NCBI GenBank assembly: GCA_963709375.1
Contig: CAVPWA010000009.1
Location: 35,980 to 59,979, forward strand
Source: an uncultured Solirubrobacterales bacterium
Lineage (GTDB): Bacteria; Actinomycetota; Thermoleophilia; Solirubrobacterales; 70-9
Length of the DNA stretch: 24,000 bases
Reading direction: 5' to 3'
In this document: positions 2,279 to 21,629 of the stretch, one piece after another
Position numbering within the stretch: position 1 is the stretch's first letter
How the letters are laid out: the number at the start of each line of letters is the position of its first letter
The notes under the pieces: model-generated
Told to the model about the DNA's origin: nothing
Databases searched by the model: none
The model's input: the letters and a program-made list of their open reading frames with translations, nothing else
Position numbers and translations under genes: made by a program

Positions 2279-3525
2279 ACTGCTGGACACAGCCGGCGCA
2301 CGCGCTGATCCGCAAGCGCTGGGTGGTCGGCACAGCCAAAGACGTTCGCTCACCGGTCGGAGGCCCGCCGATCCAGCGACCCGAGGCCCACATTGACACC
2401 CCGGCCAACGGTGGTCTCTACGCCCCGACCAAGGTGCCCGACCTCGACTTCCACTGCCGCGACCTCGACGGCCCGGCAACCGTGGCAAGCTGCACTGCGA
2501 CCGTGGACGGAAACCCGGCTCTCGACGGCGCGGCCCTGCCGGACAGCCCGGGCGCCCACACCGTAATCGTGACCGCCGTCGACACCGACGGGCTCACCCG
2601 CAGCCACAGTCACACCTACACAGTCAAGACTTTCGCCGACATCTTCAACTCGGACTCCCCGATCGCCTACTACCGCCTCGGTGAGGCCGCCGGGTCTGCG
2701 GCCATGACTGATTCTTCGGGCAACCACCGGGACGGCACCTACAAGAACGACCAGGAGTCGGGCCCGGTTGGCATCTCCGGTGACGGCGACCACGCCAGGC
2801 GCTTCATCGGCTCCGGCGGTTACGGCTATGTGAACGCCGTTGCCGCGCCGCGTTTCCAGAGCACCCTGGAGGCCTGGGTCAACCCCGAAGACCACCGCGA
2901 CCAGTCGGTACTCGGTCACGGCGAAGCCGGCGAGATCTACATCGAAGGCGGCCTGATCAAGTTCCGCCATATGGGCACCACCGTCGCTGCAAGCACCGGT
3001 CCTGCGCCCGGTCGATTCACGCAGGTCGTCGCGGTCTGGGACGGAGTCACGATCTCGCTCTACGTGGACGGCAGGCTGCGCGGCCAGACGGAGGCGACCA
3101 AGCGTCCGAGTTCGATCTCTACCTTCTACGTCGGCTACGGCGAGATCAAGCCCTGGTTCAAGGGTTCGATCGACGAGGTCGCCTACTACGACCGCGCACT
3201 GACACCCGGCCGCGTGCTCGAGCACTTCCTGGCTGACCCGCCGCCGGAAGGCGACGATGCGGTCGCAAGCGGCACGAACCCCGGCGAGCCGCAGCAGGTA
3301 ACCGCCGACCCGGTGGGCGATCCCGGATCCTTCAAGTACGAGCAGAGCGGTTCGTCCGCCGGCTCGAAGCCCGATACGGCCTCCGGACCAGACCGCGCTG
3401 CGGCCCGCAAGGCCAAGACCCGCAGGGCCAAGGTCCGCCGGGCGAAAGCCCGCAAGGCCAAGGTGCGCAAGTGCCGCGCCCTCGATCGCAAGAAGGCCCG
3501 TCGGGCCTGCCTGCGCCGCATCTGA
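2275..3525 (+). CDS. LamG / concanavalin-A-like lectin domain protein with an N-terminal Ig-like segment and a polybasic Cys-bracketed C-terminal tail; the start is uncertain and no signal peptide is visible
   Basis: 416-aa ORF. LamG (Laminin_G_3-type) signatures: IAYYRLGE, DSSGNHRDGTY, LEAWVNP, ISLYVDGRL, GSIDEVAYYDRALT. The tail is AAARKAKTRRAKVRRAKARKAKVRKCRALDRKKARRACLRRI. The GTG at 2275 overlaps the hydrolase stop (GTGA). The N-terminus VNCWTQPAHALIRKRW has no hydrophobic core. Confidence 0.7.
   Translation: MNCWTQPAHALIRKRWVVGTAKDVRSPVGGPPIQRPEAHIDTPANGGLYAPTKVPDLDFHCRDLDGPATVASCTATVDGNPALDGAALPDSPGAHTVIVTAVDTDGLTRSHSHTYTVKTFADIFNSDSPIAYYRLGEAAGSAAMTDSSGNHRDGTYKNDQESGPVGISGDGDHARRFIGSGGYGYVNAVAAPRFQSTLEAWVNPEDHRDQSVLGHGEAGEIYIEGGLIKFRHMGTTVAASTGPAPGRFTQVVAVWDGVTISLYVDGRLRGQTEATKRPSSISTFYVGYGEIKPWFKGSIDEVAYYDRALTPGRVLEHFLADPPPEGDDAVASGTNPGEPQQVTADPVGDPGSFKYEQSGSSAGSKPDTASGPDRAAARKAKTRRAKVRRAKARKAKVRKCRALDRKKARRACLRRI
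3403..3462 (+). repeat. 15-nt direct repeat gcccgcaaggccaag (3403-3417 and 3448-3462), one 45-nt (15-aa) period inside the polybasic tail of the LamG protein
   Basis: Read directly. The two copies are identical and the intervening codons repeat the A-K/R pattern (ARKAKTRRAKVRRAK / ARKAKVRKCRALDRK). Confidence 0.8.
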
Positions 3526-3555
3526 GCAGTAGACACCCCGGGCAGCTCCGCCTGA

Positions 3556-3894
3556 TCGAAACCGGCGCCGGCCCAGCTTCGAGGCTGGTCGCTAGCGCGC
3601 AGGCGGGCGGCCCGTGGGTGGCCACGGACGCGCACGCGGACACTCGCTGGTCGAGTCACGCTGCGATCGCGGCCGGGTCGCCGGGAGGCCCGGCTGGTGG
3701 CGAAGGCACCTGACCTCGACGAGCTTCTCCGGCTCGGGTTCGAGCAGGTGCGGATCGCCGCTGCGACGCATCCGACCGTCTCGCAGCGCATGCTCGACCT
3801 GCTCGACGTGATCGATGGAGCGGCCACCAGGGCCGGGATCGAGAGCTCCGAGGTCGTTCGTCAGCGTCGGCTGATCGAACCGAACGCAGGGTGA
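3556..3894 (+). pseudogene. C-terminal remnant of a DUF2254-family membrane protein; only the last ~80-110 aa are present, with no N-terminal TM region
   Basis: The frame is open from the stop at 3553-3555. Translation ...GRVTLRSRPGRREARLVAKAPDLDELLRLGFEQVRIAAATHPTVSQRMLDLLDVIDGAA... aligns by eye with the C-terminus of the full-length DUF2254 gene in this window (8747-10033): GSLRLVFPTPSWEDFLSIGLDETRLFGADSIQITRRMRALLEDLLDSVP. Shared positions are P, L, G, R, A, RM and LL. The track ORF 3697-3894 (GTG start) is the best-preserved part. Confidence 0.4.
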
Positions 3895-3933
3895 GCAGGA
3901 AGCCGGCCGTGGGCGCTGGCCTCCCCGGGAGGC

Positions 3934-4167
3934 TCAGCGCCGGGGAGGAGGCGGCGCCCGACGCTCGTCGGAGGTGCCGCCGCCGGTGCGGTCGTTGCGG
4001 TTGATCATCGCCACCGTGAACGAGAGCACAAGGATCAAGGCGCCGGCGATCATCAGGATCAGGCCGACCGTGTCCATGTCGACCCCGGAAACCGTGAAGT
4101 TGGTCGCGTAGCGCAGGATCGCGCCGACCGCGATCAGGAAGATTGGTCCTCCGAAAGAGATGTACAT
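3934..4167 (-). CDS. Small 2-TM membrane protein (DUF6458-like)
   Basis: 77-aa ORF with two hydrophobic helices (PIFLIAVGAILRYA, VGLILMIAGALILVLSFTVAMI) and a basic, Pro-rich tail. It lies 21 nt downstream of the FMN-reductase gene on the same strand. Confidence 0.75.
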   Translation of the reverse strand: MYISFGGPIFLIAVGAILRYATNFTVSGVDMDTVGLILMIAGALILVLSFTVAMINRNDRTGGGTSDERRAPPPPRR

Positions 4168-4188
4168 GGCGTCAGCCTACCGTCGGGG

Positions 4189-4908
4189 TCAGCGGTACTC
4201 GGGGTTCTCGAAACCGAAGCGTTCGCCCTGGTCCCATTCGGTCCGTTGGTTGCCGCCGACCGGAAAGCCGCCGGCGTCGCGCAGCAGCCTTGCCGCATGG
4301 AGCAGGTTCCAGGTCATGAAGGTCGTATTGCGGTTGGTGAAGTCGTTGTCGGGCCCGCCCGAGCCTTCGTCCAGGTAACTCGGACCGGGTCCGGCTTCCC
4401 CGAGCCAGGCCGCGTCTGCCTGCGGCGGGATCGTGTACCCGAGGTGCTGAAGCGAGTAGAGGACGTTCATGGCGCAGTGCTTGGCGCCGTCCTCGTTGCC
4501 GGTGACCAGGCATCCGCCGACCCGGCCGTAGTAGGCGTACTGGCCGCTTTCGTTCAGTTCGCTACTGCTCCCGTAGAGCCGTTCGATCACGCGGGTGCAG
4601 ACCGAGGACTTCTCGCCGAGCCAGATCGGGGTCAGGAGCACCAGGACGTCGGCGGCCATCACCTTCTCCTGGATCGCCGGCCATTCGTCGCTTTCCGCAC
4701 CGTGTTCGCGCATGTCGGGGTAGACCCCGGCCGCGATGTCGTGGTCGACGGCCCGGATCGTCTCAACCTCGACTCCGAGCTTTTCCATGATCGCTATCGA
4801 GATGTCCGCCAGCCCCTGGGTATGCGAAAGCGCCGGTGACGGCTTCAGGGTGCAGTTGATGAAGAGGGCTTTGAGCCCCGAGAAGTCCTGATCTGTTTCG
4901 ACTGGCAT
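4189..4908 (-). CDS. Flavodoxin-like NAD(P)H-dependent FMN reductase / oxidoreductase
   Basis: The ORF is open to 4980, but the probable start is the ATG at 4908 (MPVETDQDFSGLKALFINCTLKPSP...). The family hallmark is present: INCTLKPSPALSHT, then WPAIQEKVMAADVLVLLTPIWLGEKSSVCTRVIERL, then VTGNEDGAKH. Confidence 0.85.
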   Translation of the reverse strand: MPVETDQDFSGLKALFINCTLKPSPALSHTQGLADISIAIMEKLGVEVETIRAVDHDIAAGVYPDMREHGAESDEWPAIQEKVMAADVLVLLTPIWLGEKSSVCTRVIERLYGSSSELNESGQYAYYGRVGGCLVTGNEDGAKHCAMNVLYSLQHLGYTIPPQADAAWLGEAGPGPSYLDEGSGGPDNDFTNRNTTFMTWNLLHAARLLRDAGGFPVGGNQRTEWDQGERFGFENPEYR

Positions 4909-4989
4909 GACTGCACCGTAGCCGAGCAACCGGGACGTTCGGCGCCGCTGCTGCTGCACCCCGGTGACTTGATGCGTCATGATTGACCA

Positions 4990-5685
4990 ATGGGAACCAT
5001 GCGCAGGGGAATCACGATCATGATGCTGTCTGCCGCGACGCTGACGCTCTGGGCGTCAGCGCCGGCCTTCGCAGCCGACACGATCAGGGCCGAGGTGGAC
5101 TGCTGCACCTTCGAAGCCGGGCCGTACTTCCAGGACCTGGGTGAAGTACCGACCTTCGAAAACCCGCCCATGGCCAATCCCCACAACGTGACCTCGACGG
5201 TTTCCGGCCCGGACGGAGATGCGCTCTTCCGTTCCCGGACGATCGGCGCGGCTGACTCGACTCCGGTCAAGGGCACTCAGTACCTCGGGGCCGGCACCTA
5301 CCCCTTCTTCTGCACTCTCCACGGGGCTTCGATGAGCGGCGAGCTGGTCGTACAGGGAGACAAAGGCCAGGTGGCCGCGAGACCGTCGATCAAGGTTTCG
5401 ATCCCGCGCCAGCGGCTGAAGAAAGTCCGCAAGTCACGAAAGCTGAAGGTCAAGGTCAGGGCTTCGACGCCGAGTCCGGGCATCCGTATCGCTGTCAGGC
5501 GAGGCAAGAAGCAGATCGCATCCTCTTCGAAGATCAGCCTCGGGGCGGGCGCCGCCCGTGTCCTCAAGCTCAAGCTCACCGGCAAGGGTCGCAAGGCGAT
5601 ATCGAAGGGCAGCAAGGTCGCTGTCTCGGCGACCGGCACCGTTGACTTCGGCAAGTCGTCTCGGGCGAAACGCAGCCTTCGCTGA
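4990..5685 (+). CDS. Secreted type-1 (blue) copper protein: cupredoxin domain plus a Lys/Arg-rich beta-rich C-terminal extension
   Basis: Signal peptide MGTMRRGITIMMLSAATLTLWASAPAFA|AD. T1Cu ligand pattern: His in ANPHNVTS (5182-5184), then C-x2-H-x3-M in GTYPFFCTLHGASMSG (Cys 5311, His 5320, Met 5332). C-terminal ~100 aa: KVSIPRQRLKKVRKSRKLKVKVRAS...LKLKLTGKGRKAISKGSKVAVSATG. Confidence 0.85.
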   Translation: MGTMRRGITIMMLSAATLTLWASAPAFAADTIRAEVDCCTFEAGPYFQDLGEVPTFENPPMANPHNVTSTVSGPDGDALFRSRTIGAADSTPVKGTQYLGAGTYPFFCTLHGASMSGELVVQGDKGQVAARPSIKVSIPRQRLKKVRKSRKLKVKVRASTPSPGIRIAVRRGKKQIASSSKISLGAGAARVLKLKLTGKGRKAISKGSKVAVSATGTVDFGKSSRAKRSLR

Positions 5686-5881
5686 AGTTTTCGGCGGCGG
5701 AAGCCTTCCCTTGCGGTAGATTCTGTTGAGGCGGTCACGGCGGAGGGCTGCCAGGAGCGAACTTGGGAGCGTGAATGGCCTTCAGGGTTGAGTCTGTACG
5801 TGACGGTGGCATCGGCCGTGTTTCGGTCGTCCGGCATCGGGCTGGCGCTGGCAAGCCCTTCTCCTGCTCACGCTCGCTCCG

Positions 5882-7501
5882 GTGTCGAAGGCGGTCGTCC
5901 CTCCGCAGACCGAAATCCTCCCCAACGGGGTCGAGCGCATCACCTACTACGTCGGCGAAAACGGCGGGCCGCTGCAGGTGACCTCGGGACAGAACCGGAT
6001 CGACTACGACCCGATCTTCGGCCTTCAGAAGCCCTCCCGGAACGGCTGGATCACCAGGATCGAACCCAACCTGGTCAGGCCGGACGGCTCGATTCCGAAG
6101 TCGAGCAAGGTCATGTTCCACCACGGCGTCTGGCTCAATGCGAGCCGCGACGACGCCACTGACGATTCGGTCGGCGCATTCTTCCCGGAGCGCTTCTATG
6201 CCACCGGTGAAGAAAAGACCGCAATGGAGTTGCCGCCCGGATTCGGCTATCGCTACGAGAAGACCGACCTCTGGATCCTCAACCACATGGTGCACAACCT
6301 CGTGGTCGAGCCGATGGAGCTCTACATCACTTATACGATCGACTTCATTCCCGATGGTTCACCGCTGGCCGAAGGCATCGAGCCGGTGCGGCCGATCTGG
6401 ATGGACGTCGAGAACGGCACCGAGTACCCGGTCTTCGACGTAAAGCGCGGAAGCGGCGGCAAGGACGGAGAGTTCACCTACCCGGCCGACGCCGGCAACC
6501 CATACGGAAGCGGCCCGAAGGAGAACGAGTGGGTCGTCGACCGGGACGGGGTCCTGGTGCAGACGATCGGCCACGTCCACACCGGCGGCCTCTCGACCGA
6601 GCTCTACCTCAACCGTGACGGCGCCAAGTACTCCGGCCCCAGGTGCAAGAAGCTGAAGAAGCTGAAGCAGGCGCAGAAGAAGAACTGGAGCAAGAAGCGC
6701 AAGCGTGCCTTCAGGAAGAAGCAGAAGCGGATCCGCGCCTGCCGGTCGAAGCAGCCGAACGTAAAGGGCGACCGGGTCGAGCTGTTCACTTCCCAGGCCA
6801 GGTACTTCGGCAACCGCCGGCCCGTCTCCTGGGACGTGGCGATGGTTGGCACCAGGCCGAACTGGCGGGTGGCGGTCAAGGCCGGCGATACCCTCGAGCT
6901 TCAGACGACCTACGAGACCAAGATCGCTTCCTGGTACGAGTCGATGGGCATCAACGTCCTGTACATGGCCGATGCCGATGTTGCCGGCAAGGATCCGTAT
7001 TCGAAGAAGGTCAGCTACCGGGGAGTGCTCAACCACGGCCACTTCGAGGAGAACAACGACCACGGCGGCAAGGGTCCCGTAGTCGGGCCGGATCCCCGCA
7101 GGCTGCCGGACGGCATGCCGCAGTCGCAGCCGCTGATGATCGGCGGATACACATACGAAGCCGGTGACTTCCGCATACCCGGCGCGGTCGGCCGCCCGCC
7201 GGTCGTCGAGCGCGGAGAGCAGCTCACCTTCCAGCTCTCCGCCGGAGACCAGTCGAACCAGATCTGGCATTCGCTGACCTCCTGCAAGGCACCCTGTAAC
7301 AGGTCCACCGGGATCTCCTACCCGATCCCGGACGGCGAGTTCCAGTTCGACTCGGGCCAGCTCGGGCTGGGGCCGGCGCCGACCGTGAACCGCGATGAGT
7401 GGTCCACGCCGAAGAACATGCCGGTCGGGACCCACACCTTCTTCTGCCGTATCCACCCGCTGATGCGCGGGGCAGTCAGGGTCGTGAAGCCTGACCAGTA
7501 G
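5882..7501 (+). CDS. Two-domain copper monooxygenase-like protein (PHM/DBH, 'copper type II ascorbate-dependent monooxygenase' fold) fused to a C-terminal type-1 cupredoxin domain; carries a 33-aa Cys-bracketed polybasic insertion
   Basis: 539-aa ORF with a GTG start. Motifs are in PHM order and roughly PHM spacing. CuH-like: VMFHHGVW (His 6119, 6122), then FYATGEEKTAMELPPGFGYRYEKTDLWILNHMVHN (compare PHM LYAWA...RLPKGVGFRVG...VLQVHYG). CuM-like: IGHVHTGG (His 6572, 6578; compare PHM VHTHHLG), then VKAGDTLELQTTYET...WYESMGINVLYM (Met 6944; compare GDILAARCVF...SDEMCNLYIMYY). C-terminal cupredoxin: WHSLTS (His 7268) and THTFFCRIHPLM (Cys 7445, His 7454, Met 7463), the same spacing as the amicyanin C-x2-H-x2-M loop. 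Confidence 0.75.
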   Translation: MSKAVVPPQTEILPNGVERITYYVGENGGPLQVTSGQNRIDYDPIFGLQKPSRNGWITRIEPNLVRPDGSIPKSSKVMFHHGVWLNASRDDATDDSVGAFFPERFYATGEEKTAMELPPGFGYRYEKTDLWILNHMVHNLVVEPMELYITYTIDFIPDGSPLAEGIEPVRPIWMDVENGTEYPVFDVKRGSGGKDGEFTYPADAGNPYGSGPKENEWVVDRDGVLVQTIGHVHTGGLSTELYLNRDGAKYSGPRCKKLKKLKQAQKKNWSKKRKRAFRKKQKRIRACRSKQPNVKGDRVELFTSQARYFGNRRPVSWDVAMVGTRPNWRVAVKAGDTLELQTTYETKIASWYESMGINVLYMADADVAGKDPYSKKVSYRGVLNHGHFEENNDHGGKGPVVGPDPRRLPDGMPQSQPLMIGGYTYEAGDFRIPGAVGRPPVVERGEQLTFQLSAGDQSNQIWHSLTSCKAPCNRSTGISYPIPDGEFQFDSGQLGLGPAPTVNRDEWSTPKNMPVGTHTFFCRIHPLMRGAVRVVKPDQ

Positions 7502-10062: not shown

Positions 10063-10635
10063 CTAGCCCTTTTTCATCGTCGTCTTCGACGTGGCGAACT
10101 GCTCGCCGTTGAAGAAGATCCGGGTTGTCACCTTGACCAGGCGGTTGTTCATCTTGCCGCTCAGGGAATACGTGACCTGCTTGTCGCAGGGAGAGGTCCC
10201 GGTGGCGCTGATCTTGCTCTTGGCGTGTTTGTAGGTGACCGAGACCGGACCTTGGTCGTTTCGGTAGGAGGCCTTGAATCCGCCGTTGTTCCAGCGGTTC
10301 TTTCCTTTGCCCTTGCGCATCTTCACCTTGCGCGGGGGAGGGCTCGGGCAGCCGAAGGCAGATCCGCCAAGCCTGAATACGACGGAGATGACCGGCTTCT
10401 TCCTGTTGCCCTTCAGCCCGAGGGTCATCGAGGCCTTGCCGGTGGTGTCGAAAGTCAGGTTGTTCCAGGTTCCGGACCACTTGCCCTTGAACTGCTTTGG
10501 TACGAACGCCTTCGCCTTCTTCTTCGATGTCGCGGCGTCACCGGATGGTCCCGCGGTCGAAAGTCCCGCGCCCGCGGCTCCGAGCAGAACAGTGGCCACC
10601 ACTGCCGTCAAGAAAAACTTCCCCACCCGCATCAT
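10063..10635 (-). CDS. Secreted Lys-rich hypothetical protein
   Basis: The ORF is open to 10668, but the probable start is the ATGATG at 10635/10632 (MMRVGKFFLTAVVATVLLGAAGAGLS, a signal peptide). The mature part is beta-rich and very basic (KKKAKAFVPKQFKGKW..., PRKVKMRKGKGKNRW). It lies 29 nt upstream of the DUF2254 gene on the same strand. I recognise no family. Confidence 0.65.
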   Translation of the reverse strand: MMRVGKFFLTAVVATVLLGAAGAGLSTAGPSGDAATSKKKAKAFVPKQFKGKWSGTWNNLTFDTTGKASMTLGLKGNRKKPVISVVFRLGGSAFGCPSPPPRKVKMRKGKGKNRWNNGGFKASYRNDQGPVSVTYKHAKSKISATGTSPCDKQVTYSLSGKMNNRLVKVTTRIFFNGEQFATSKTTMKKG

Positions 10636-10714
10636 CTGGATCCCCTTCGTCGCTGTGTACCTGACCATAGGTGAGTGTATACGGAGTTTCTGGTCGTTTC
10701 CCGGGATCGGTGGC

Positions 10715-10736
10715 CCCGGCCGGCCATCCGGCCGGG
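10715..10736. promoter_or_regulatory. Perfect 9-bp G/C stem with a 4-nt loop (cccggccgg-ccat-ccggccggg) in the divergent intergenic region, 46 nt upstream of the heliorhodopsin ATG
   Basis: Read directly: 10715-10723 is the exact reverse complement of 10728-10736. The function (operator palindrome or 5'-UTR structure) is unknown. Confidence 0.4.
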
Positions 10737-10781
10737 AGCAAAGGCCGATTTCACGAAGGCGGGCCGGGTAGTGTTCCCGAC

Positions 10782-11576
10782 ATGAGTGAAAAGACCTCAG
10801 CGGCCTCCGAGACCAGTCCCGAGCGGCAGAAGCTTTCCAGGCTGCGCCGCCTGAACCTGATCGCCACGATCTTCTTCGCGGTTCAGGTGATCGTCCTCCT
10901 GCTTATCTCGGAACCGGCGGAGTTACCGGTCATCGGCTCGTTTCTGACCGACGCGCCGGGCAGCGGCCAGTACGGGTCCAAGGTCCTCTTCGACCTCAGG
11001 ATCGACATCCTGGTCGCGCTATTCCTCGCCCTGGCTGCGGTGGACCATTTCGCGGTCGGCACCTTCGCCCGCAGCTGGTACGAGAAGAACGTGAGCCGCG
11101 GCATCAACCCGGCGCGCTGGTGGGAATACTCGATCAGCGCCTCGATCATGGTGGTGCTGATCGCCATGCTGGCCGGCGCGAGCGACGCGGTCGCGCTCTT
11201 CGCGATCTTCGGCGTCAACGCCTCGATGATCTTCTTCGGCCTGGTCATGGAGAAGGCCAATCTCGGACGCGAAGAGGTCAACTGGTCTCCTTTCATTTTC
11301 GGATGCGTAGCGGGAGCCGTGCCGTGGATCGCGATCGTGATCCAGCTCGCGCTGGCGCAGTCCGAAGGCGACGGCGTCCCGGGATTCGTCTACGGGATCT
11401 TCGTTTCACTGTTCATCCTCTTCAACGGCTTCGCGGTGAACATGTGGCTCGGCTACCGGGCCAACGGCCGGTGGAAGGACCCGCTCTTCGTCGAGAAGGC
11501 GTACATCGTGCTGAGTCTCGTCGCGAAGACGGTTCTGGCGTGGCAGGTCTACCAGGGCGCTCTCGCCGGATCCTGA
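10782..11576 (+). CDS. Heliorhodopsin (HeR), a 7-TM retinal protein
   Basis: The track ORF starts at 10671, but the ATG at 10782 gives a 264-aa protein colinear with the prototype HeR 48C12: ARWWEYSISASIMVVLIA (vs FRWVEYSLSSSVMIVLIA), AIFGVNASMIFFG (identical core), FGCVAGAVPWI, VPGFVYGIFVSLF, KAYIVLSLVAKTVLAWQVY (vs RAYIVLSLVAKSALAWQIF). The Schiff-base Lys codon is at 11526-11528 and the counterion Glu codon at 11124-11126. Confidence 0.92.
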   Translation: MSEKTSAASETSPERQKLSRLRRLNLIATIFFAVQVIVLLLISEPAELPVIGSFLTDAPGSGQYGSKVLFDLRIDILVALFLALAAVDHFAVGTFARSWYEKNVSRGINPARWWEYSISASIMVVLIAMLAGASDAVALFAIFGVNASMIFFGLVMEKANLGREEVNWSPFIFGCVAGAVPWIAIVIQLALAQSEGDGVPGFVYGIFVSLFILFNGFAVNMWLGYRANGRWKDPLFVEKAYIVLSLVAKTVLAWQVYQGALAGS

Positions 11577-11580
11577 CTTC

Positions 11581-13110
11581 GTGGGTGGCACGACCGCCTG
11601 GGTCCTGGGCGACCAACTCTCGAGGTCGAACCCGGCGCTCAAGGGAGCCGACCGGGTGCTCATGGTCGAATCGCTGGCCGTGGTGGGCAGGCGGGCCTAT
11701 CACCGTCAGAAGCTCCACCTCGTCTGGGCGGCGATGCGGCGCTTCCGCGACGAACTTACCCGGGACGGCTTCGAGGTCGACTACCGCAGCGCGCCTTCGA
11801 TGGCCGCGGGCTTTCGTGATCACCTGTCGGATCACGACCCCGATCGCATTCTTGTGCTGGACCCCGCCAGGCTCGGCGCCGGACCACGCCTGAACGCCCT
11901 TGACCAAAGGGTCTGCGTGCTGGAAGGCGGCCTGTTCCTGACTTCGCCCGAGGACTTCAGGCAGTGGGCCTCCGGCCGCCGCCAACTTCGAATGGAGGAC
12001 TTCTATCGCCGGCAGCGCCGCCGCTTCGACCTGCTGATGGACGGAGACCAGCCTGAAGGCGGCAAGTGGAACCTCGACTCCGAGAACCGCGGCCGCCCGC
12101 CGGCCGGGCTGAAGCCGCCGCGTCCTTACCGTCCCCGCGAGGACGAGGTCGATGCCGCGGTGCGCCGCGACCTCGATCGGCTGACCGGTGAAGATGCCCC
12201 GGGCAAAGCGATAGCCGTCTCCGGTGTTGATGGCCCGCGACTCTTCCCGGCCGGGCGTGACGAGGCGCGCAGGGCACTGAGCTCGTTCTGCGAGAAACGC
12301 CTGCCGGAGTTCGGCACCTACCAGGATGCGATGCTGGCGGGGCGGCGCTTCATGTGGCATGCGCTGCTGTCCAGCTCCCTCAACCTGGGGCTGCTCGATC
12401 CTCTTGAATGTGCCCGGGCGGCCGAAGCCGAGTATCGCGCCGGACGCGCGCCACTCAACTCGGTGGAGGGTTTCATCCGACAGGTAATCGGCTGGCGCGA
12501 GTACGTCTGGGGGATCTATCGCCTGCGGGGTAGCGAACTCGCGGGCGAGAACGCACTCGGGGCGGAGGGCCGCCTGCCGGCCGTCCTCGACCGACTCGAA
12601 CCCGGGCTGACTGACATGGCCTGCGTTGCCGACGTGGTCGACGGAGTCCGCGAGACGGCCTACGCCCACCACATCGAGCGCCTGATGCTGCTCGGCAACC
12701 TGATGCTGCTCGCCGGCACTTCTCCCTCCCGCTCCAACGAATGGTTCCACCGCTCCTTCATCGATGGCTACGAGTGGGTGATGCTGCCGAACGTTTCGGG
12801 CATGGCGCTCTGGGCCGACGGTGGCCGGATGATGTCGAAGCCGTACGCCGCTTCCGGTCGCTACATCGATCGAATGTCCGATCATTGCGCCGGCTGCCGC
12901 TACAGCCCGACCAGCCGCTCGGGTGAGCAGGCCTGCCCGTTCACGGTGCTCTACTGGGATTTCCTCGATCGCAACAGGCAGGCGCTGGCGGGCAATCACC
13001 GCATGGCAATGGTCCTGGCCAACCTTGACCGGATCGGGACGGAGGAGCTGTCAGGCATCCGGAAGAACGCCTCCGCCATCCGCGATGGACTGGAGGGCGG
13101 CAACACCTGA
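11581..13110 (+). CDS. Cryptochrome/photolyase family protein of the Fe-S cluster type (FeS-BCP; COG3046 'photolyase-related'; PhrB/CryB-like, probable (6-4) photolyase)
   Basis: 509-aa ORF. The GTG lies 4 nt after the HeR stop. The N-terminus AWVLGDQLS...LMVES...RRAYHRQKLHLVWAAMRRF is typical of COG3046. Four Cys are spaced C-x87-C-x2-C-x12-C (MACVADVV ... SDHCAGCRYSPTSRSGEQACPF), the same spacing as the [4Fe-4S] ligands C350/C438/C441/C454 of Agrobacterium PhrB. HHIERLM and GYEWVMLPNV motifs are present. Confidence 0.9.
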   Translation: MGGTTAWVLGDQLSRSNPALKGADRVLMVESLAVVGRRAYHRQKLHLVWAAMRRFRDELTRDGFEVDYRSAPSMAAGFRDHLSDHDPDRILVLDPARLGAGPRLNALDQRVCVLEGGLFLTSPEDFRQWASGRRQLRMEDFYRRQRRRFDLLMDGDQPEGGKWNLDSENRGRPPAGLKPPRPYRPREDEVDAAVRRDLDRLTGEDAPGKAIAVSGVDGPRLFPAGRDEARRALSSFCEKRLPEFGTYQDAMLAGRRFMWHALLSSSLNLGLLDPLECARAAEAEYRAGRAPLNSVEGFIRQVIGWREYVWGIYRLRGSELAGENALGAEGRLPAVLDRLEPGLTDMACVADVVDGVRETAYAHHIERLMLLGNLMLLAGTSPSRSNEWFHRSFIDGYEWVMLPNVSGMALWADGGRMMSKPYAASGRYIDRMSDHCAGCRYSPTSRSGEQACPFTVLYWDFLDRNRQALAGNHRMAMVLANLDRIGTEELSGIRKNASAIRDGLEGGNT

Positions 13111-13208
13111 GCGGCACCCGGCCGGGTGGGATGCACAACACGTCGGCCGTACACCCTTAGACTGCAGGCGTCGGCGCCGAAAGGCGCTTCCACCTTCGGA
13201 GAGGAGCC

Positions 13209-14576
13209 ATGTTCATGGGCAAGCAAGTCAAGTACCTGCTCGATGAGTCTCAGATCCCGGACCACTGGGTCAACATTGCCGCCGATCTTCCCGGCGAGCC
13301 ACTGCCGCCGCTGAACCCCGGCACCGGGCAGCCACTCGGTCCTGAGGATCTCGCGCCGCTCTTCCCGATGGGCCTGATCGAGCAGGAAGTCTCGATGGAG
13401 CCGGAGATCGATATTCCCGAGGAAGTCATCGACGCCTACCGCCTCTGGCGACCGACCCCGCTGATCCGCGCCCGGCGCCTGGAGAAGGCCCTCGACACGC
13501 CGGCTCACATCTACTTCAAGTACGAAGGCGTATCTCCGGCCGGCTCCCACAAGCCCAACAGCGCGATCCCTCAGGCCTACTACAACAGCCAGGAGGGCGT
13601 GAAGAAGCTTTCGACTGAGACCGGGGCCGGCCAGTGGGGCTCCTCACTGGCTCTGGCCTGCGAGATGTTCGGACTCGAGTGCGAGGTCTTCATGGTCGGA
13701 GTCAGCTACGACCAGAAGCCCTACCGCCGGGCGATGATGGAGACCTGGGGCGCGACTGTCCACCGCAGCCCGTCGCAACTCACCGAAGCCGGTCGCGCAC
13801 AGGCCGAGCACGTCACCGGCTCGCTCGGCATCGCGATCTCCGAGGCGGTCGAAGTCGCCGTCGCATCGGAAGACACCAAGTACGCACTCGGCTCGGTTCT
13901 GAACCACGTCTGCCTGCACCAGACCGTGATCGGCCAGGAGGCGATCGCCCAGCTCGAAATGGCCGGCGAGTTCCCGGACGTGGTGGTCGGCTGTGTCGGT
14001 GGCGGGTCCAACTTCGCGGGCATCGCTTTCCCGCTGCTCAGGAAGAAGCTGAAGGAGGGGCTCGACACCAGGTTCGTCGGGGTTGAGCCGGCTGCCTGCC
14101 CGACCATGACCAAAGGCACTTACGCCTACGATTTCGGGGACACGGTCGGCATGACGCCACTGATGCCCACCTATACGCTCGGCCACGACTTCGTGCCGCC
14201 ACCGGTTCACGCCGGCGGACTGCGCTATCACGGCGTGGCCCCGATCCTCGGCGCGCTGGTCAAGGAAGGACTGGTCGAGGCCCGCGCCATCCCTCAGACC
14301 GAGGCCTTCGAGGCGGCGATCACCTTCGCCCGGGCCGAGGGGATCATCCCGGCGCCTGAGCCGACCCACGCGATCCGCGCCGTGATCAACGAAGCCGAGC
14401 AGGCCAGACAGGAGGGCGATGAGCGGGTGATCCTGTTCAACCTCTGCGGACACGGACATCTCGATCTCGCCGCCTACCAGTCCTACCTTTCCGGAGAGCT
14501 GGTCGATCTCGAGTTCTCCGAGGAGGAGATGGACCGGGCCCTGGAGAGTCTGCCCGAAGCGCCGTCGATCGCCTGA
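13209..14576 (+). CDS. trpB2: TrpB2-type tryptophan synthase beta-like PLP enzyme
   Basis: 455-aa ORF. GGAGAGGAG lies upstream (13198-13206). The long TrpB2-specific N-terminus is present ([14 protein letters not shown]...PLNP), followed by [29 protein letters not shown] (PLP lysine), [13 protein letters not shown], and [11 protein letters not shown]. Confidence 0.9.
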
Positions 14577-16048: not shown

Positions 16049-16930
16049 TCAGGCTTCGTTCGTCTCCGACTCTTCACCCCTGGGCACCACGAGCACCGGA
16101 CAGGCCACTTCGTGGAGCAACTCCGAGCTGACCGAGCCGAGCAGTACCCGCTTCAGCGGGCCGTAGCCCCTCGAACCGACGCAGAGCAGGTCGAGCCCCT
16201 GTGCCGCCTGCTCACGCAGCGCGACGGCGGCAACCCCTTCGGTCATGACCCTGGTCGCCTCGACGCCGTCGGGCAGCGAGTCGGCGGCCGCCGTGAGGGT
16301 CTTCTGCGCTGACTCGCGTGAAGCCTCACCGAGTTCCGAAAGCGCATAGGTCGAGCCCCAGAAGCCCCAGGCATCGGCAAAGTCGGTAGCGACGGTGATC
16401 AGCCGCATTTCTGCACCTGCCCCGGCGATCTCCAATGCGGCCTGAAGGGCCTGCCCGGACTCGGGTGAGCCGTCGGTCGCGACGCCGATCGTGGCCCAGT
16501 CGGCCCCGCCATCCCTGAAGCCGACCGGAGCCAGGGCGATCGCGCAGCGTGAGCCCTGCAGCAGAACCCTCGCTTTGTGACCGGCCCGGACCGTTCCGGG
16601 TTCGGTCCTGGCGCATCCGAGGACCAGCAGATCGCCTTCGAGAGTCTCGGTGAGTTCTTCCAGGCCTCGGGCCGCCGAGCTGCTCTCGACGATCTCGAAA
16701 CCGGCCTCGAATTCAGCGGCGGCCTTCTCGAGCCCGACCTTGGCCTGCTCGACCAGGTTCGTGAAGGCGTTGGCGGGCAGGGCGGGAATCAGGCTGCCGC
16801 CGACCGGCGGCGGGACCACTCCGACCAGCACCAGTTCCGCCTCGAGTCGATCGGCAAGTTGCCTCGCCAGCGCCAGCGCGTCTTTCGAGCCGTCGCTCTC
16901 GTCAAAACCGACCACGATGCGTTCGAACAC
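16049..16930 (-). CDS. Universal stress protein, tandem USP domains
   Basis: The ORF is open to 16996, but GTG 16930 is preceded by a strong AAGGAGGA (complement of 16936-16943, 5-nt spacing). It opens as VFERIVVGFDESDGSKDAL. A second USP repeat is present (IGVATDGSPESGQAL), with the C-terminal motif LLCVGSRGYGPLKRVLLGSVSSELLHEVACPVLVVP. Confidence 0.85.
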   Translation of the reverse strand: MFERIVVGFDESDGSKDALALARQLADRLEAELVLVGVVPPPVGGSLIPALPANAFTNLVEQAKVGLEKAAAEFEAGFEIVESSSAARGLEELTETLEGDLLVLGCARTEPGTVRAGHKARVLLQGSRCAIALAPVGFRDGGADWATIGVATDGSPESGQALQAALEIAGAGAEMRLITVATDFADAWGFWGSTYALSELGEASRESAQKTLTAAADSLPDGVEATRVMTEGVAAVALREQAAQGLDLLCVGSRGYGPLKRVLLGSVSSELLHEVACPVLVVPRGEESETNEA

Positions 16931-17131
16931 TTGCTTCCTCCTTGAATTTCGGGCTGCCGCCGCCCCCGGGGCGCTCGGCCTGGTGTCTGATTTCAAGCTA
17001 TCAACCGGGGAGAGCTTCCGGACCGTTCTCCTCAGGTCGACCTGACCGGCGACGGGCCTGATGTTGCGGGTGCCGATCCTTTCGAGCCGGGCCGACGGTT
17101 GCCGCCGGTTCGAGCAAGCTAAGGTCCGCCG

Positions 17132-17701
17132 ATGTCACTCGTCGAATCAAGGATGATGCCGCTCGGATCTGCCGCCCCGGAATTCAGCCTGCCTGATCCC
17201 GACGGGGTGAGTCACTCGCTGGGCGATGCGGCGCAGGCCGGAGCGGTTGTCGTCGCCTTCATCTGCAACCACTGCCCTTATGTGAAGCACATCGCCACCG
17301 CCCTGGCCCGGGTCTCGGATGAGCTGATCGCCGAAGGGGCGGCCGTATTCGCGATCAATTCGAACGACAGCGTCGCGTATCCGGACGACTCTCCCGAACG
17401 CATGGCCGAGGAAGTCGAAAGGCGGGGCTACCGCTTCCCCTACCTGGTCGACGCCGACCAGTCGGTGGCAAGGGCCTACGGGGCGGTGTGCACACCGGAC
17501 CTCTTCGTATTCGACGGTGAGCGCCGCCTCGCCTATCGCGGGCAGTTCGACCCGAGCCGGCCGAACGGAGGTTCCCCGGCCACCGGTGAGGATCTCGCCG
17601 CGGCGGTGAGGGCAGTGCTGACCGGAGCCTCCGTACCGGAACCACAGATCCCTTCGGTCGGGTGTTCGATCAAGTGGTCATCCGGCGACCCGGCACCCTG
17701 A
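17132..17701 (+). CDS. Thioredoxin-fold (AhpC/TSA / redoxin-like) thiol-disulfide oxidoreductase
   Basis: 189 aa. GSAAPEFSLPDPDGV...VVAFICNHCPYVKH (CxxC) ...CTPDLFVFD. Confidence 0.85.
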   Translation: MSLVESRMMPLGSAAPEFSLPDPDGVSHSLGDAAQAGAVVVAFICNHCPYVKHIATALARVSDELIAEGAAVFAINSNDSVAYPDDSPERMAEEVERRGYRFPYLVDADQSVARAYGAVCTPDLFVFDGERRLAYRGQFDPSRPNGGSPATGEDLAAAVRAVLTGASVPEPQIPSVGCSIKWSSGDPAP

Positions 17702-17797
17702 AGCCAGGACAGGCCGGTCCACACGGGGGATTGCCGCGATAGATCGTGAAGCCCGTTGCCGAGGTGCCGACAGGGCGGAACCGTCAACATTCAGTCA

Positions 17798-19558
17798 ATG
17801 CTCCTGCTGATCCTCTTCGGATTCGTCGCCGGTGCCGCGACGGCGGTATCGCCCTGCATCCTGCCGGTGCTGCCCGTAGCCCTGGCGGCCGGCGCGACCG
17901 GTGGCCACCGCAGGCCGATCGGAATCGTCGCCGGCCTGGCCGTCTCTTTCACCTTCGCGATCGTGGTGCTTGTCTACCTGCTGGATGCCCTCGGCCTGCC
18001 CGACGAGCTGATGCGAAACCTGGCGATCGCCGTGCTGCTCGGTTTCGGCCTGACGCTGCTGGTGCCGGCCGTTTCGAGCCGGGCCGAAGGCCTGATCAGC
18101 CGGATTACCAGCCGCTTCCAGCCGAAGACAGGCAGCGGCGACGGCTTCTGGTCCGGCACTCTGATCGGCGCCAGCCTCGGTCTCGTCTACGCGCCCTGTG
18201 CCGGTCCGATCCTGGCCGGAGTCATCACCGTCTCCGCCTCGCAGCCGTTCACCGCCGGGCGCCTGGCGGTGGCGCTGGCCTACGGGATCGGCTCCGCTTT
18301 GGTGCTTTACCTGCTGATGATCGGCGGACGCAGACTCATCAGGCCGCTCGGCCGCCAGACGCCGAGGCTGCAGGCGGCGATGGGCGCGGTGATGGTCGTC
18401 TTCGCGCTGGTCATGGCCGGGGACTACGACCTCAGGTTCCAGAACGAGATCGCCGACAACCTGCCTGCCGTGGTGGTCAACCCGACCAGGTCGCTCGAGT
18501 CGACCGCCGCGGCGCAAGACGCATTGGCCGAGGTCAGGGGTGGGCCGGCGAGCCCGGAGGCACGGCGGATCGCCGAAGGCCTCGATCGGGCAGACGAGGA
18601 TGGGCAGGGCCCGGACTCCGGCCTGCCCGTGATCGCTCCGGCTCCGGACTTCGTCGGCAACCAGCGATGGTTCAACACCCCCGGTGGTGCGCCCCTGACC
18701 ATGTCGTCGCTGAGGGGGCGCGTTGTGCTGGTCGATTTCTGGACCTACAGCTGCATCAACTGCATCCGCACCCAGCCTTACCTCAAGGCCTGGGACGAGC
18801 GCTACCGCGACCGCGGGCTTACCATCGTCGGGGTCCATTCGCCCGAGTTCCCGTTCGAGAAGGACGCGGGCAACGTCGAGCAAGCGATCGAGAGGGCCGG
18901 GATCGGGTACCCGGTGGCGCAGGACAACGATTTCCAGACCTGGAACGCCTATGCGAACCAGTACTGGCCGGCGGAGTACTTCATCGACGCCGAGGGCCGG
19001 GTCCGCTACGCCCATTTCGGCGAGGGTGAATACGAAGAGAAGGAGCAGGTGATCCGCGACCTGCTCGCCGAAGCCGGCCGCAGGCCGGGGGAAGGGACCT
19101 CAGACGCCGACGGCGACAGCATCTCGAACGGCGTCACGACGCCGGAGAGCTACCTCGGCTCGGCCCGGGCCGACCGCTTCACCAACGGCCTGATCCTTTC
19201 CGGGGTCCGGAACTTCGGTCGCCTGGAGGAGCCGGGACCGGACGAGCTCTCCTACGGTGGTCGTTGGAACATCGATCCGGATTTCGCTGTCGCCCAAGGC
19301 GGCAGGCTGAGCCTGCGTTTCGAGGCCAAGCGGGTCTTTCTCGTTCTCGGTTCACCTGGCGGGCCGCGTCGGGTGAAGGTCCTGCTCGACGGTTTGCCGA
19401 TCCGGCAGGGCGATGCCGGCCGGGACGTCTTGCGATCGAGTGTGACCGTCGATCGCGAACGCCTCTACGAGCTTGTCGACCTGCCGCAGGTCGGCAGCCA
19501 TACGCTCACCCTGATCCCCGAGGGAGGGGTCAGGGCCTACGCCTTCACCTTCGGCTGA
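17798..19558 (+). CDS. dipZ: DipZ-type cytochrome c biogenesis / thiol-reductant transfer protein: CcdA(DsbD) membrane domain, thioredoxin domain and C-terminal DipZ beta domain
   Basis: The track ORF starts at 17756, but the ATG at 17798 opens MLLLILFGFVAGAATAVSPCILPVLP (CcdA first Cys). The second TM Cys is in LVYAPCAGPILAG. Periplasmic Trx motif: VLVDFWTYSCINCIRTQPYL...VHSPEFPFE...YWPAEYFIDAEG. The C-terminal ~170 aa match the mycobacterial DipZ layout. Confidence 0.9.
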   Translation: MLLLILFGFVAGAATAVSPCILPVLPVALAAGATGGHRRPIGIVAGLAVSFTFAIVVLVYLLDALGLPDELMRNLAIAVLLGFGLTLLVPAVSSRAEGLISRITSRFQPKTGSGDGFWSGTLIGASLGLVYAPCAGPILAGVITVSASQPFTAGRLAVALAYGIGSALVLYLLMIGGRRLIRPLGRQTPRLQAAMGAVMVVFALVMAGDYDLRFQNEIADNLPAVVVNPTRSLESTAAAQDALAEVRGGPASPEARRIAEGLDRADEDGQGPDSGLPVIAPAPDFVGNQRWFNTPGGAPLTMSSLRGRVVLVDFWTYSCINCIRTQPYLKAWDERYRDRGLTIVGVHSPEFPFEKDAGNVEQAIERAGIGYPVAQDNDFQTWNAYANQYWPAEYFIDAEGRVRYAHFGEGEYEEKEQVIRDLLAEAGRRPGEGTSDADGDSISNGVTTPESYLGSARADRFTNGLILSGVRNFGRLEEPGPDELSYGGRWNIDPDFAVAQGGRLSLRFEAKRVFLVLGSPGGPRRVKVLLDGLPIRQGDAGRDVLRSSVTVDRERLYELVDLPQVGSHTLTLIPEGGVRAYAFTFG

Positions 19559-19568
19559 GCGGCCGGAG

Positions 19569-19871
19569 TCAGTCCCTGGACCAGGAGGAAGATTCGCTCG
19601 AGGTGGTCAGAACCTCGAGGATGTCGCCGATCGCGTGCTCGCGGTCGAGCGGGTGCCTCAACGGAATGTTCGGGTTGAGCTGGTAGCTGTTGCGGCGGCC
19701 TTCGCGGGTCCGGTCGAGATAGCCGGCTTCGACCAGGTCGGCGACGATGCGCTGAGCGGCACGCTCGGTGATACCCACGAAGTCGGCCACGTCACGCAGG
19801 CGGATATCAGGGTCCCTCGCGACGCAGAGCAGCACGTGGGCGTGGTTGGTCAGGAAGGTCCATTCGGTCAT
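19569..19871 (-). CDS. Small winged-helix (ArsR/MarR-like) HTH transcriptional regulator
   Basis: 100 aa. TNHAHVLLCVARDPDIRLRDVADFVGITERAAQRIVADLVEAGYLDRTREGRRNSY (HTH plus wing). It is divergent from dabB across a 156-nt gap. Confidence 0.8.
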   Translation of the reverse strand: MTEWTFLTNHAHVLLCVARDPDIRLRDVADFVGITERAAQRIVADLVEAGYLDRTREGRRNSYQLNPNIPLRHPLDREHAIGDILEVLTTSSESSSWSRD

Positions 19872-20027: not shown

Positions 20028-21629
20028 TTGAGCGCCCTGCTGATCGCCGCAGTTGTCCTGCCGGGCATCGCGGTCATTTTCGGAGTGGCGGCAGGGGCAC
20101 AACGGCACCAGGCCGTAGCCCGCATCGGAGTGGCGCTGAACCTCGCCTCGCTGGCCCTCGCTTTCGCCGTCTTCATTTCAGTCTGGGCAGACTCTCCGGC
20201 AGCCGCGGTCATCGAGAACGGATCCGGCGAAGCCGTACTGGGTCTGGTCGCCGACCGGGTCACCTCGGTCCTGCTGCTTCTGGTTCTCGGTGTCAGCGCC
20301 GTGGTCCAGGCCTTCGCCGGCCGCTACCTCGGCGGCGACGTGCGTGCCGGACGATTCTTCAACGGGGCAAACCTGCTCACCTTCTCGACCGCCCTGATGG
20401 TCACTTCGGTCACCTTCATCGGGCTGGCGATCGCCTGGACCGTCGCCGGTATCTCGGTGGTCCTGCTGCTCGCCATGTACAGCGGTTTCGAGGCCGCCAG
20501 GGAAGGGGTCCGGCGGGCGGTCCGGATCTTCGTGATCGGAGACGTCGCGATCTGGGCAGCCGTCATCCTTGCCACCATCGAGTGGGGATCGCTGGACCTG
20601 CGCACGCTCGGCCAGTCGGGACCCGAACTGGCCGGCGCCTCGATGCTCGTTCCGGTGGCCTGCCTGCTGGTCGTGGCCGCGATGGCCCGCTCGGCCCAGT
20701 TGCCGCTTCAGAGCTGGCTGCCGGCCACGCTCGCCGTGCCCACACCGGTCTCGGCTCTGCTCCACGCAGGGGTCGTGAACGCCGGCGGCATCCTGCTGGT
20801 CAGGCTGAGCCCGGTCTTCGGTGCATCGTCCGAGGCCACCCATCTCGCTTTCTTCGCCGGGGCCGCGACAACCGTCTACGGCACCGCCCTGATGCTCTCC
20901 AAGACCGACGTAAAGGGCGCACTGGCCCACTCGACGATGGGTCAGATGGGCTTCATGATCATGACCTGCGGACTCGGCGCCTACGCCGCGGCAGTCTTCC
21001 ACCTGTTCGCCCACGGCATGTACAAAGCGACCCTCTTCCTCGGCTCGGGGGCGGCTGTCCACAGTAAGGTGCGCCACGCCAAGGCCCCGCCGGTCGGGAC
21101 GGCTACTCCTGCCGCGAAGGCATTCTCGATCGCCCTTGCGGCCGCGGTTCCCGCCGCCGTTCTGCTCATCTTCGCCGAGCTGCTCTACCCGGACCGTTCC
21201 TCCGGTGCCAACGCCCTGCTGCTATTTGCCTGGGCCACCGGAGCCTGGATCCTGTACGGCTGGGGCAGGCGCCACGCCTCGGTCGTCGGCGCCCTCTCGG
21301 GCGCCGGGCTGGTCACGCTCGCGGCCGGGGCCTATGTCCTGCTGCTGAGCTCGGTCAGCGAGTTCATGGCACCTGCCCTCGCCGGAGCGGGGGAGGCGGT
21401 CGTCTCGCCCTGGTGGGTTGCCGGACTGTTCGTCCTGATGGCGCTGGCCGGGCTCACCGCGCTCGCCGGACCCGGCGGGCGAATCGCTGAAATCCGAAAG
21501 ACCATCTACGTTCTGGCGCTCGGGGCCGGCCAGGTGAGCGAGCGGCGCAGGCGCCCGGTCCGCTCCGAAAGGCCGGTTCCGGCCGGCTCCGGAGGCCTGA
21601 TGCCGGAATCCCAGGGAGCGAGCTCGTGA
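20028..21629 (+). CDS. dabB: DabB: proton-conducting membrane subunit (NuoL/MrpA, PF00361-type) of a DAB inorganic-carbon uptake complex
   Basis: 533-aa polytopic protein. TTG start with GGAGG 6 nt upstream. Conserved PF00361 core: ARSAQLPLQSWLPATLAVPTPVSALLHAGVVNAGGILLVRL and KGALAHSTMGQMGFMIMTCGLGAYAAAVFHLFAHGMYKATLFLGSG. The identity as DabB rests on the 4-nt overlap (GTGA) with the DUF2309/dabA gene. Confidence 0.85.
   Translation: MSALLIAAVVLPGIAVIFGVAAGAQRHQAVARIGVALNLASLALAFAVFISVWADSPAAAVIENGSGEAVLGLVADRVTSVLLLLVLGVSAVVQAFAGRYLGGDVRAGRFFNGANLLTFSTALMVTSVTFIGLAIAWTVAGISVVLLLAMYSGFEAAREGVRRAVRIFVIGDVAIWAAVILATIEWGSLDLRTLGQSGPELAGASMLVPVACLLVVAAMARSAQLPLQSWLPATLAVPTPVSALLHAGVVNAGGILLVRLSPVFGASSEATHLAFFAGAATTVYGTALMLSKTDVKGALAHSTMGQMGFMIMTCGLGAYAAAVFHLFAHGMYKATLFLGSGAAVHSKVRHAKAPPVGTATPAAKAFSIALAAAVPAAVLLIFAELLYPDRSSGANALLLFAWATGAWILYGWGRRHASVVGALSGAGLVTLAAGAYVLLLSSVSEFMAPALAGAGEAVVSPWWVAGLFVLMALAGLTALAGPGGRIAEIRKTIYVLALGAGQVSERRRRPVRSERPVPAGSGGLMPESQGASS

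Follow-up and report, generated by a model that had tools for sequence, protein, structure and literature searches.

A heliorhodopsin gene and an iron-sulphur (6-4) photolyase gene in a predicted two-gene operon of a Solirubrobacterales clade

The function of heliorhodopsins (HeRs) has been settled in a handful of cases only, each time by testing the neighbour encoded in the same operon. The closest described system is that of Trichococcus flocculiformis, whose HeR (TfHeR) binds and stimulates the class II cyclobutane pyrimidine dimer (CPD) photolyase of its own operon with a KD of 21.7 µM, residues E97, R162 and K227 being reported to mediate photolyase binding and Arg162 to be critical (PMC9769723). 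Here we describe a HeR gene and the photolyase gene directly downstream of it in a stretch of 24,000 nucleotides (nt), hereafter the window, from an uncultured Solirubrobacterales bacterium (GenBank assembly GCA_963709375.1, contig CAVPWA010000009.1, positions 35,980 to 59,979); all positions below are counted from its first letter. The photolyase belongs to the Fe-S cluster photolyases and cryptochromes (FeS-BCPs), a class distinct from that of the Trichococcus enzyme.

A 2024 classification of HeR operons (PMC11109279, Supplementary Data 3) recognises a 'photolyase group' made up of Trichococcus, Sedimentibacter, Jeotgalibaca and two Chloroflexi, with no member from the Thermoleophilia and no partner annotated as 'cryptochrome/photolyase family' (FeS-BCP). 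Within Actinobacteria, Dataset S3 of Chazan et al. 2021 (bioRxiv 10.1101/2021.02.16.431466) gives PF04244 neighbours for 32 of 876 group-A HeRs, 14 of them 'potentially co-expressed', an enrichment against background with a Fisher P of 4.6e-30, and two Nanopelagicales HeR fosmids from the same study carry a COG3046 phrB gene. In full-text literature searches we found no paper discussing the pairing of HeR with a (6-4) photolyase or FeS-BCP. The association had been seen before but not explored, its record being a single supplementary-table line.

A predicted two-gene transcription unit

Our principal finding is that the HeR and photolyase genes of the window very probably (we would say nine chances in ten) form a co-transcribed and translationally coupled operon that pairs a HeR with a (6-4) photolyase and has been passed down vertically within one Solirubrobacterales clade (Table 1). 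An earlier note, made from the letters of this DNA, had placed the HeR stop codon at 11574-11576, followed after a gap of 4 nt by a GTG start at 11581, and had proposed that the two genes are co-transcribed; the coordinates are exact, and co-transcription is well supported by sequence comparison. Of 15 adjacent pairs, the window included, 14 have a gap of 4-5 nt from the stop codon of HeR to the start codon of the photolyase, and the other, L014, has one of 13 nt. That this junction is kept amid flanking genes that vary from locus to locus argues that the adjacency is more than chance. Because the junction leaves no room for a further signal, because a -10-like box stands upstream of HeR, and because the TrpB-like gene that follows has a promoter-like box of its own, we regard the two genes as a discrete operon, from which read-through into the TrpB-like gene would be possible.

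Upstream of HeR, a TANNNT box is found at an equal distance (7 nt) before the ATG in all nine aligned relatives, with GGGTAGTGT conserved in five of the nine, and the same alignment shows no Shine-Dalgarno sequence between box and start codon. Leaderless genes of actinobacteria usually have a TANNNT box just before the start codon, and its presence here suggests that the HeR-photolyase mRNA is leaderless. Since a scan with the sigma-70 consensus returned no promoter at the HeR box, the promoter call rests on its conservation together with this actinobacterial layout. No LexA-type box was found in the HeR promoter region. The region is shared with a divergent gene for a secreted protein (10063-10668, minus strand), which has its own TANNNT-type box, TACACT (minus strand, 10669-10690), a few nt before its ATG, and both genes of the divergent pair look leaderless. 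Between them lies a perfect palindrome, CCGGCCGG-CCAT-CCGGCCGG (10716-10735), that is partly kept in L001, a Solirubrobacterales metagenome-assembled genome (MAG), and absent from other relatives.

At the other end of the operon, the leader of the TrpB-like gene contains in succession the box TAGACT (13158-13163), a hairpin GGCGCC-GAAA-GGCGCT (13173-13188) and the Shine-Dalgarno sequence GGAGAGGAG (13198-13206). Across 13 loci, whose preceding gene is in some the photolyase and in others HeR, both the -10-like box and the Shine-Dalgarno sequence are retained, and TAGACT does not vary. The hairpin, too, is common to these loci; the fold energy of the leader is unexceptional (z = -0.74), no Rfam family is matched in the window, and neither an intrinsic nor a consensus terminator was found around the operon. 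Both genes have the third-position G+C bias of their neighbours (0.84 for HeR and 0.82 for the photolyase) in a window of 66% G+C, and the host is a soil or freshwater actinobacterium.

The two encoded proteins

The earlier note was right about both families. The HeR matches PF18761 with an E-value of 2.8e-89 and 299 bits (cutoff 26.7) in an alignment that spans all 242 profile positions, the NCBIfam HeR equivalog NF038020 with 290 bits (cutoff 100), and the structure of HeR 48C12 (6su3) with an E-value of 5.7e-60. By alignment to this structure, K241, E107 and H80 of 48C12 correspond to K249 (the Schiff-base Lys in transmembrane helix 7), E115 (the counterion Glu in transmembrane helix 3) and H89 of the window protein, all of which are invariant in an alignment of 22 relatives. 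H23 of 48C12 is replaced by F32, and was not taken as a defining residue. We infer by homology that the window HeR binds retinal and has the inverted topology, with a cytoplasmic N-terminus. A longer reading frame from GTG 10671 was rejected in favour of the ATG at 10782, because the -10-like box would lie inside it, the alignment of homologues starts near residue 13 of the ATG form, and an identical protein of 264 amino acids (aa) exists in the database (P0001).

The photolyase matches PF04244 (DPRP) with an E-value of 1.2e-53 and aligns end to end with 9hnk/9q8f (1.9e-134, residues 1-502), PhrB (4dja, 2.3e-114) and CryB (3zxs, 3.5e-114). The 9hnk and 9q8f chains are 509 aa long, and the one residue by which they differ matches the K48A mutation described for the Caulobacter (6-4) photolyase (PMC12082625); the closest solved relative of the window enzyme is a bona fide (6-4) photolyase. 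The GTG start at 11581 is supported by this alignment, which covers the 509-aa chain from its first residue on. Residue roles known for PhrB (PMC4619345; bioRxiv 10.1101/366252) were transferred by structure alignment (Table 1). The four Cys ligands of the cluster, which about 30% of the FeS-BCP group are without (bioRxiv 10.1101/366252), are invariant among the relatives aligned. M408 is also counted among the catalytic residues. The window enzyme looks competent for (6-4) repair. The role of the [4Fe-4S] cluster in prokaryotic (6-4) photolyase has been described as unknown (PMC12082625). As for the antenna, which the earlier note gave as 6,7-dimethyl-8-ribityllumazine, the Lys that stabilises the DLZ antenna in the Caulobacter enzyme, Cc(6-4)PL (K48; PMC12082625), is kept as K44; however, the antenna class had been assumed, and FeS-BCPs with an 8-hydroxydeazaflavin (8-HDF) antenna are also known (PMC9178010).

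The photoreduction path departs from that of PhrB at two positions. Glu340 stands in place of the surface residue Trp342, a replacement that predicts an altered route of flavin photoreduction, and Phe389 in place of Tyr391. The surface Trp is also absent from many environmental FeS-BCPs and is therefore a variable feature of the group rather than a criterion for exclusion from it. As a marker of HeR-linked photolyases we rejected its loss, given that many unlinked environmental FeS-BCPs are without this Trp. The 'LDP' insertion beside Glu340 marks the entire clade of close homologues, the unlinked L081, L087 and L152 included.

These photoreduction changes, namely the replaced surface Trp and the clade-specific insertion of 3 aa at the same site, might instead be taken as signs of a CryB-like signalling cryptochrome, which together with HeR would form a two-colour sensory pair (green for HeR, blue/UV-A for the flavoprotein) controlling gene expression, and the match to CryB equals that to PhrB (385 against 386 bits). 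We nevertheless think this very unlikely. The (6-4) repair residues are all intact (His364, Leu368, Tyr422, Tyr428, the Mg2+ Asp pair and the four Cys), a condition with which signalling would still be compatible, the nearest solved relative repairs (6-4) lesions, the Trp has been lost widely among environmental FeS-BCPs irrespective of HeR, and the operon includes no regulator or output domain.

Distribution of the pair among relatives

We used a HeR alignment to survey one genome per GTDB species, obtaining 80 loci, nearly all from MAGs of Solirubrobacterales and other Thermoleophilia. Fourteen of them have a photolyase gene downstream of HeR in the same orientation, directly adjacent in 9 and at 1.3-2.1 kb in 5. 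All 14 are among the 29 loci with the most similar HeRs, and the 51 more distant loci yielded none. The locus in L001 has full synteny with the window, with 97% identity for HeR and 93% for the photolyase. A second survey, centred on the photolyase and run with its alignment against metagenome contigs, placed HeR directly upstream of the photolyase in five of five close homologues (70-87% identity). No HeR accompanied two photolyases at 67-71% identity, and none was found near more than 70 distant FeS-BCPs, L139 being the sole exception.

In a neighbour-joining tree of HeR, the linked loci fall within one Solirubrobacterales clade, 20 of whose 26 members have the photolyase downstream. Because the absences (L002, L004, L005, L007, L018 and L013) are scattered within this single clade, the distribution fits one ancestral linkage followed by at least four losses. 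In the photolyase-free L002, L004 and L007, the promoter box or gene of the TrpB-like protein comes directly after the HeR stop, and in L005 after a larger gap. Upstream neighbours vary by subclade (a divergent secreted-protein gene with DUF2254, a co-directional gene of 539 aa, and others), and since they change between loci the pair is more stable than its 5' surroundings. On this evidence the pair is restricted to one clade, in which it is vertically inherited and facultative. No downstream neighbour of the locus is as constant as the TrpB-like gene (86-98% identity among relatives), and a functional link between HeR and the TrpB-like protein, comparable to that of HeR with glutamine synthetase, is an alternative partner hypothesis.

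A single origin can explain all the adjacent cases in the clade, and would do so equally if the photolyase had been inserted once, by accident, between HeR and the TrpB-like gene and were now being lost at random, in which case the adjacency would mean nothing. The clean deletions, which leave the TrpB-like promoter box directly behind the HeR stop, are of the kind such a history would leave. We think it improbable all the same, since the 4-5 nt junction persists while the flanks rearrange, since the enrichment of PF04244 near HeR against background has been published, and since HeR and DPRP genes have come into proximity independently in the Ilumatobacteraceae (Acidimicrobiia). There the two genes are divergent and 0.7-2.4 kb apart in 2 of 5 sampled loci, an arrangement that looks like an independent light-stress cluster.

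In these Ilumatobacteraceae loci (L139, 811-6503; L162, 3123-6810) the divergent HeR and DPRP photolyase genes are separated by an SDR or NmrA-DUF2867 gene, and in L139 a gene for a flavin amine-oxidase (CrtI-like fold) is found beside HeR. In L164, a MAG of the same family, a Fur-family regulator gene is followed by katG, which runs 4 nt into the beginning of the co-directional HeR gene (3346-6774); HeR appears here to be translationally coupled to the catalase-peroxidase gene.

Table 1. Features of the HeR-photolyase locus, TetR-paired photolyases of relatives, and functional residues of the window photolyase (numbered in the window protein) with their PhrB equivalents
Feature	Position	Strand	Basis or PhrB equivalent
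-10-like promoter box TAGTGT (TANNNT), 7 nt before the HeR ATG	10769..10774	+	alignment of relatives
Heliorhodopsin gene (ATG 10782 to TGA 11574-11576, 264 aa)	10782..11576	+	Pfam, NCBIfam, structure alignment
Spacer CTTC, 4 nt, HeR stop to photolyase start; putative site of translational coupling	11577..11580	+	junction comparison
FeS-BCP, predicted prokaryotic (6-4) photolyase gene (GTG 11581 to stop 13108-13110, 509 aa)	11581..13110	+	Pfam and alignments to 4dja, 3zxs, 9hnk
Promoter-like box and leader of TrpB-like gene; 3' boundary of the two-gene unit	13158..13206	+	alignment of 13 loci
TrpB-like pyridoxal phosphate enzyme gene (context only)	13209..14576	+	NCBIfam NF009057, 715 bits
L081 photolyase, TetR gene 5 nt upstream	L081 7360-9518		
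L087 photolyase, TetR gene 25 nt downstream	L087 5001-7155		
[4Fe-4S] ligands	C348, C436, C439, C452		C350, C438, C441, C454
Catalysis	H364, L368		His366, Leu370
Lesion binding and repair	Y422, Y428		Tyr424, Tyr430
Mg2+ binding	both Asp present		Asp179, Asp254
Photoreduction	W388		Trp390
Photoreduction, surface Trp	E340, beside the 3-aa insertion 'LDP' (residues 336-342)		Trp342
Photoreduction path	F389		Tyr391

Coupling between the proteins and comparison with known systems

Beyond the operon itself, the reading we favour, at roughly two chances in five, is that HeR directly binds the photolyase and raises repair. A leaderless, translationally coupled operon would yield both a HeR that binds retinal and a [4Fe-4S] (6-4) photolyase competent for repair; green light would excite HeR, the cytoplasmic face of HeR would bind the soluble photolyase made along with it, and the bound enzyme would repair more (6-4) photoproducts, with HeR serving as an optional and dispensable 'helper'. 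We propose this because of the precedent of TfHeR and its photolyase (TfPHR) and of other HeR-partner pairs, because of the conserved coupling, and because the two genes have come to lie near each other independently in a second class.

A number of observations weigh against such a direct role. The earlier note had regarded adjacency that is not conserved in relatives as a point against the pairing, and this applies in part: the adjacency is kept in one Solirubrobacterales clade only, and within that clade the photolyase has been lost at least four times with HeR retained (L002, L004, L005, L007, L018), while in one subclade (L006, L008, L010, L011 and L016) a convergent AlgH-like gene on the opposite strand and a GST-like gene stand between HeR and photolyase, so that co-transcription is not universal. 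In the genome of L002, a photolyase of the clade type (L081) is found about 50 kb from HeR, 5 nt behind a TetR gene. Many unrelated genes share tight operons with HeRs (GH10 in L006-type loci and katG in L164 are two cases), and the frequency of PF04244 near HeR is no different from that in proton-pump rhodopsin neighbourhoods (P 0.52; bioRxiv 10.1101/2021.02.16.431466). In line with the earlier note, no gene for retinal or carotenoid biosynthesis was found among the window open reading frames scanned against Pfam, a scan that covered all but a few short called frames.

The proteins themselves add to these points. In a mirror-tree test on 15 related, non-independent taxa, the distance correlation between HeR and photolyase (r = 0.66) was no higher than those of HeR and of the photolyase with the TrpB-like protein (0.71 and 0.75), and it mainly reflects shared descent; the partial correlation was 0.27 (permutation p ~0.02, with the same non-independence). 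Given the few and related taxa, we rejected the mirror-tree signal as evidence of interaction. A comparison of linked with unlinked members of the clade revealed no HeR residues specific to photolyase-linked loci. Among the residues of the TfHeR interface, R162 is kept as R163, and neither K227 (A227 in the window, with R226 adjacent) nor E97 (S98) is conserved. With co-evolution beyond phylogeny not found, the pairing of photoreceptor and effector remains an analogy.

Another way to view the operon is as co-regulation and nothing more, with a shared promoter serving both genes in sunlight, no contact between the products, another primary target for HeR and a photolyase that works alone. Repeated loss of the photolyase from loci where HeR stays would be expected under such an arrangement, as would the occurrence of the photolyase beside a TetR gene elsewhere (L081, L087) and the lack of both a co-evolutionary signal and linked-specific HeR residues. 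HeR neighbourhoods are, moreover, broadly themed around light and oxidative stress, their photolyase association is shared with proton-pump rhodopsins, and the window itself contains AhpC, DsbD-thioredoxin and Usp genes. We take co-regulation alone to be quite possible, if short of an even chance. What speaks for the helper role instead is that the junction of 4-5 nt has been kept over about 30% protein divergence, which suggests coupled and near-stoichiometric synthesis, and that the HeR operon partners tested to date are all reported to bind HeR.

The TetR gene of L087 lies 25 nt downstream of the photolyase, and its pairing with the photolyase there and in L081 suggests an alternative regulatory arrangement for the clade-type enzyme. 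In the photolyase tree (neighbour-joining only), L081 groups with L003, L014 and L085, and the HeR of L002 belongs with the branch of the window, L001 and L082. The L081 photolyase could thus be a replacement by recombination or transfer rather than a simple relocation.

A more specific form of direct coupling, which we consider doubtful, is a light-gated membrane complex of HeR and Fe-S (6-4) photolyase, in which HeR would extend the action spectrum into the green or control the redox state of the flavin or the [4Fe-4S] cluster, with E340 and the 'LDP' site as an entry point. If it exists, it would represent a second and mechanistically distinct photolyase client of HeR and give the Fe-S cluster a physiological context. 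Binding or activation of the enzyme by HeR, in whatever form, would extend the helper-rhodopsin idea past CPD repair and past the Firmicutes, and would provide an experimental handle on Fe-S photolyases. Should the two proteins not interact, the locus would be one more HeR in a light and oxidative-stress gene neighbourhood. In either case the linked, separated, relocated and photolyase-free loci within one clade offer natural variants for comparison.

Further downstream in the window (16049-19871) are a tandem Usp gene on the minus strand, an AhpC/TSA gene, a gene for a fusion of DsbD transmembrane and thioredoxin domains (600 aa) and a MarR-type regulator gene, which fit the published oxidative-stress theme of HeR neighbourhoods. 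Beyond these, a DabA (PF10070) homologue follows a DabB-like Proton_antipo_M gene (20028-21629) and is divided between two reading frames in different frames (21626-22873 and 23040-23996; profile positions 1-283 and 389-704), which could reflect a frameshift, a pseudogene or an assembly error.

Compared with the described systems, the window photolyase is homologous over its full length to PhrB of Agrobacterium, CryB of Rhodobacter and Cc(6-4)PL of Caulobacter (E-values of 1e-114 to 1e-134), and it keeps the equivalents of the four Cys, His366, Leu370, Tyr424, Tyr430, Trp390, Asp179 and Asp254 of PhrB as well as the antenna Lys of Cc(6-4)PL. It differs from PhrB in having Glu for Trp342, the adjacent 'LDP' insertion and Phe for Tyr391, and no characterised member of the class is known to have a rhodopsin gene beside its own, as the window enzyme has. 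The actinobacterial entry of Chazan et al. 2021 involves the same two Pfam families as neighbours; however, it is a table entry only, referred to in the text as 'DNA photolyase', without analysis of clade, junction or promoter and without distinction of photolyase class. The 'photolyase group' of PMC11109279 likewise brings HeR and a photolyase gene together at the level of the operon, but its partners are all annotated as deoxyribodipyrimidine photolyase, and none is directly adjacent to HeR.

The nearest parallel is still TfHeR and TfPHR, where, as in the window, HeR and a repair enzyme of the cryptochrome/photolyase family share one transcription unit (which for the window we infer from sequence), and where the binding-critical R162 aligns with R163 of the window HeR. 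The earlier note had given this precedent as a Firmicute HeR stimulating a co-encoded 'classical' CPD photolyase; the stimulation stands, and the partner is a class II CPD photolyase two genes away. In Trichococcus a DUF2238 gene separates HeR from the photolyase, with gaps of 15-90 nt, whereas the window genes are 4 nt apart; the partner here is a [4Fe-4S] prokaryotic (6-4) photolyase, unlike TfPHR, and the host is a Thermoleophilia actinobacterium rather than a Firmicute. The locus is thus novel relative to the known HeR-photolyase theme in three respects, with a different class of photolyase, a direct coupling of the two genes and a different phylum.

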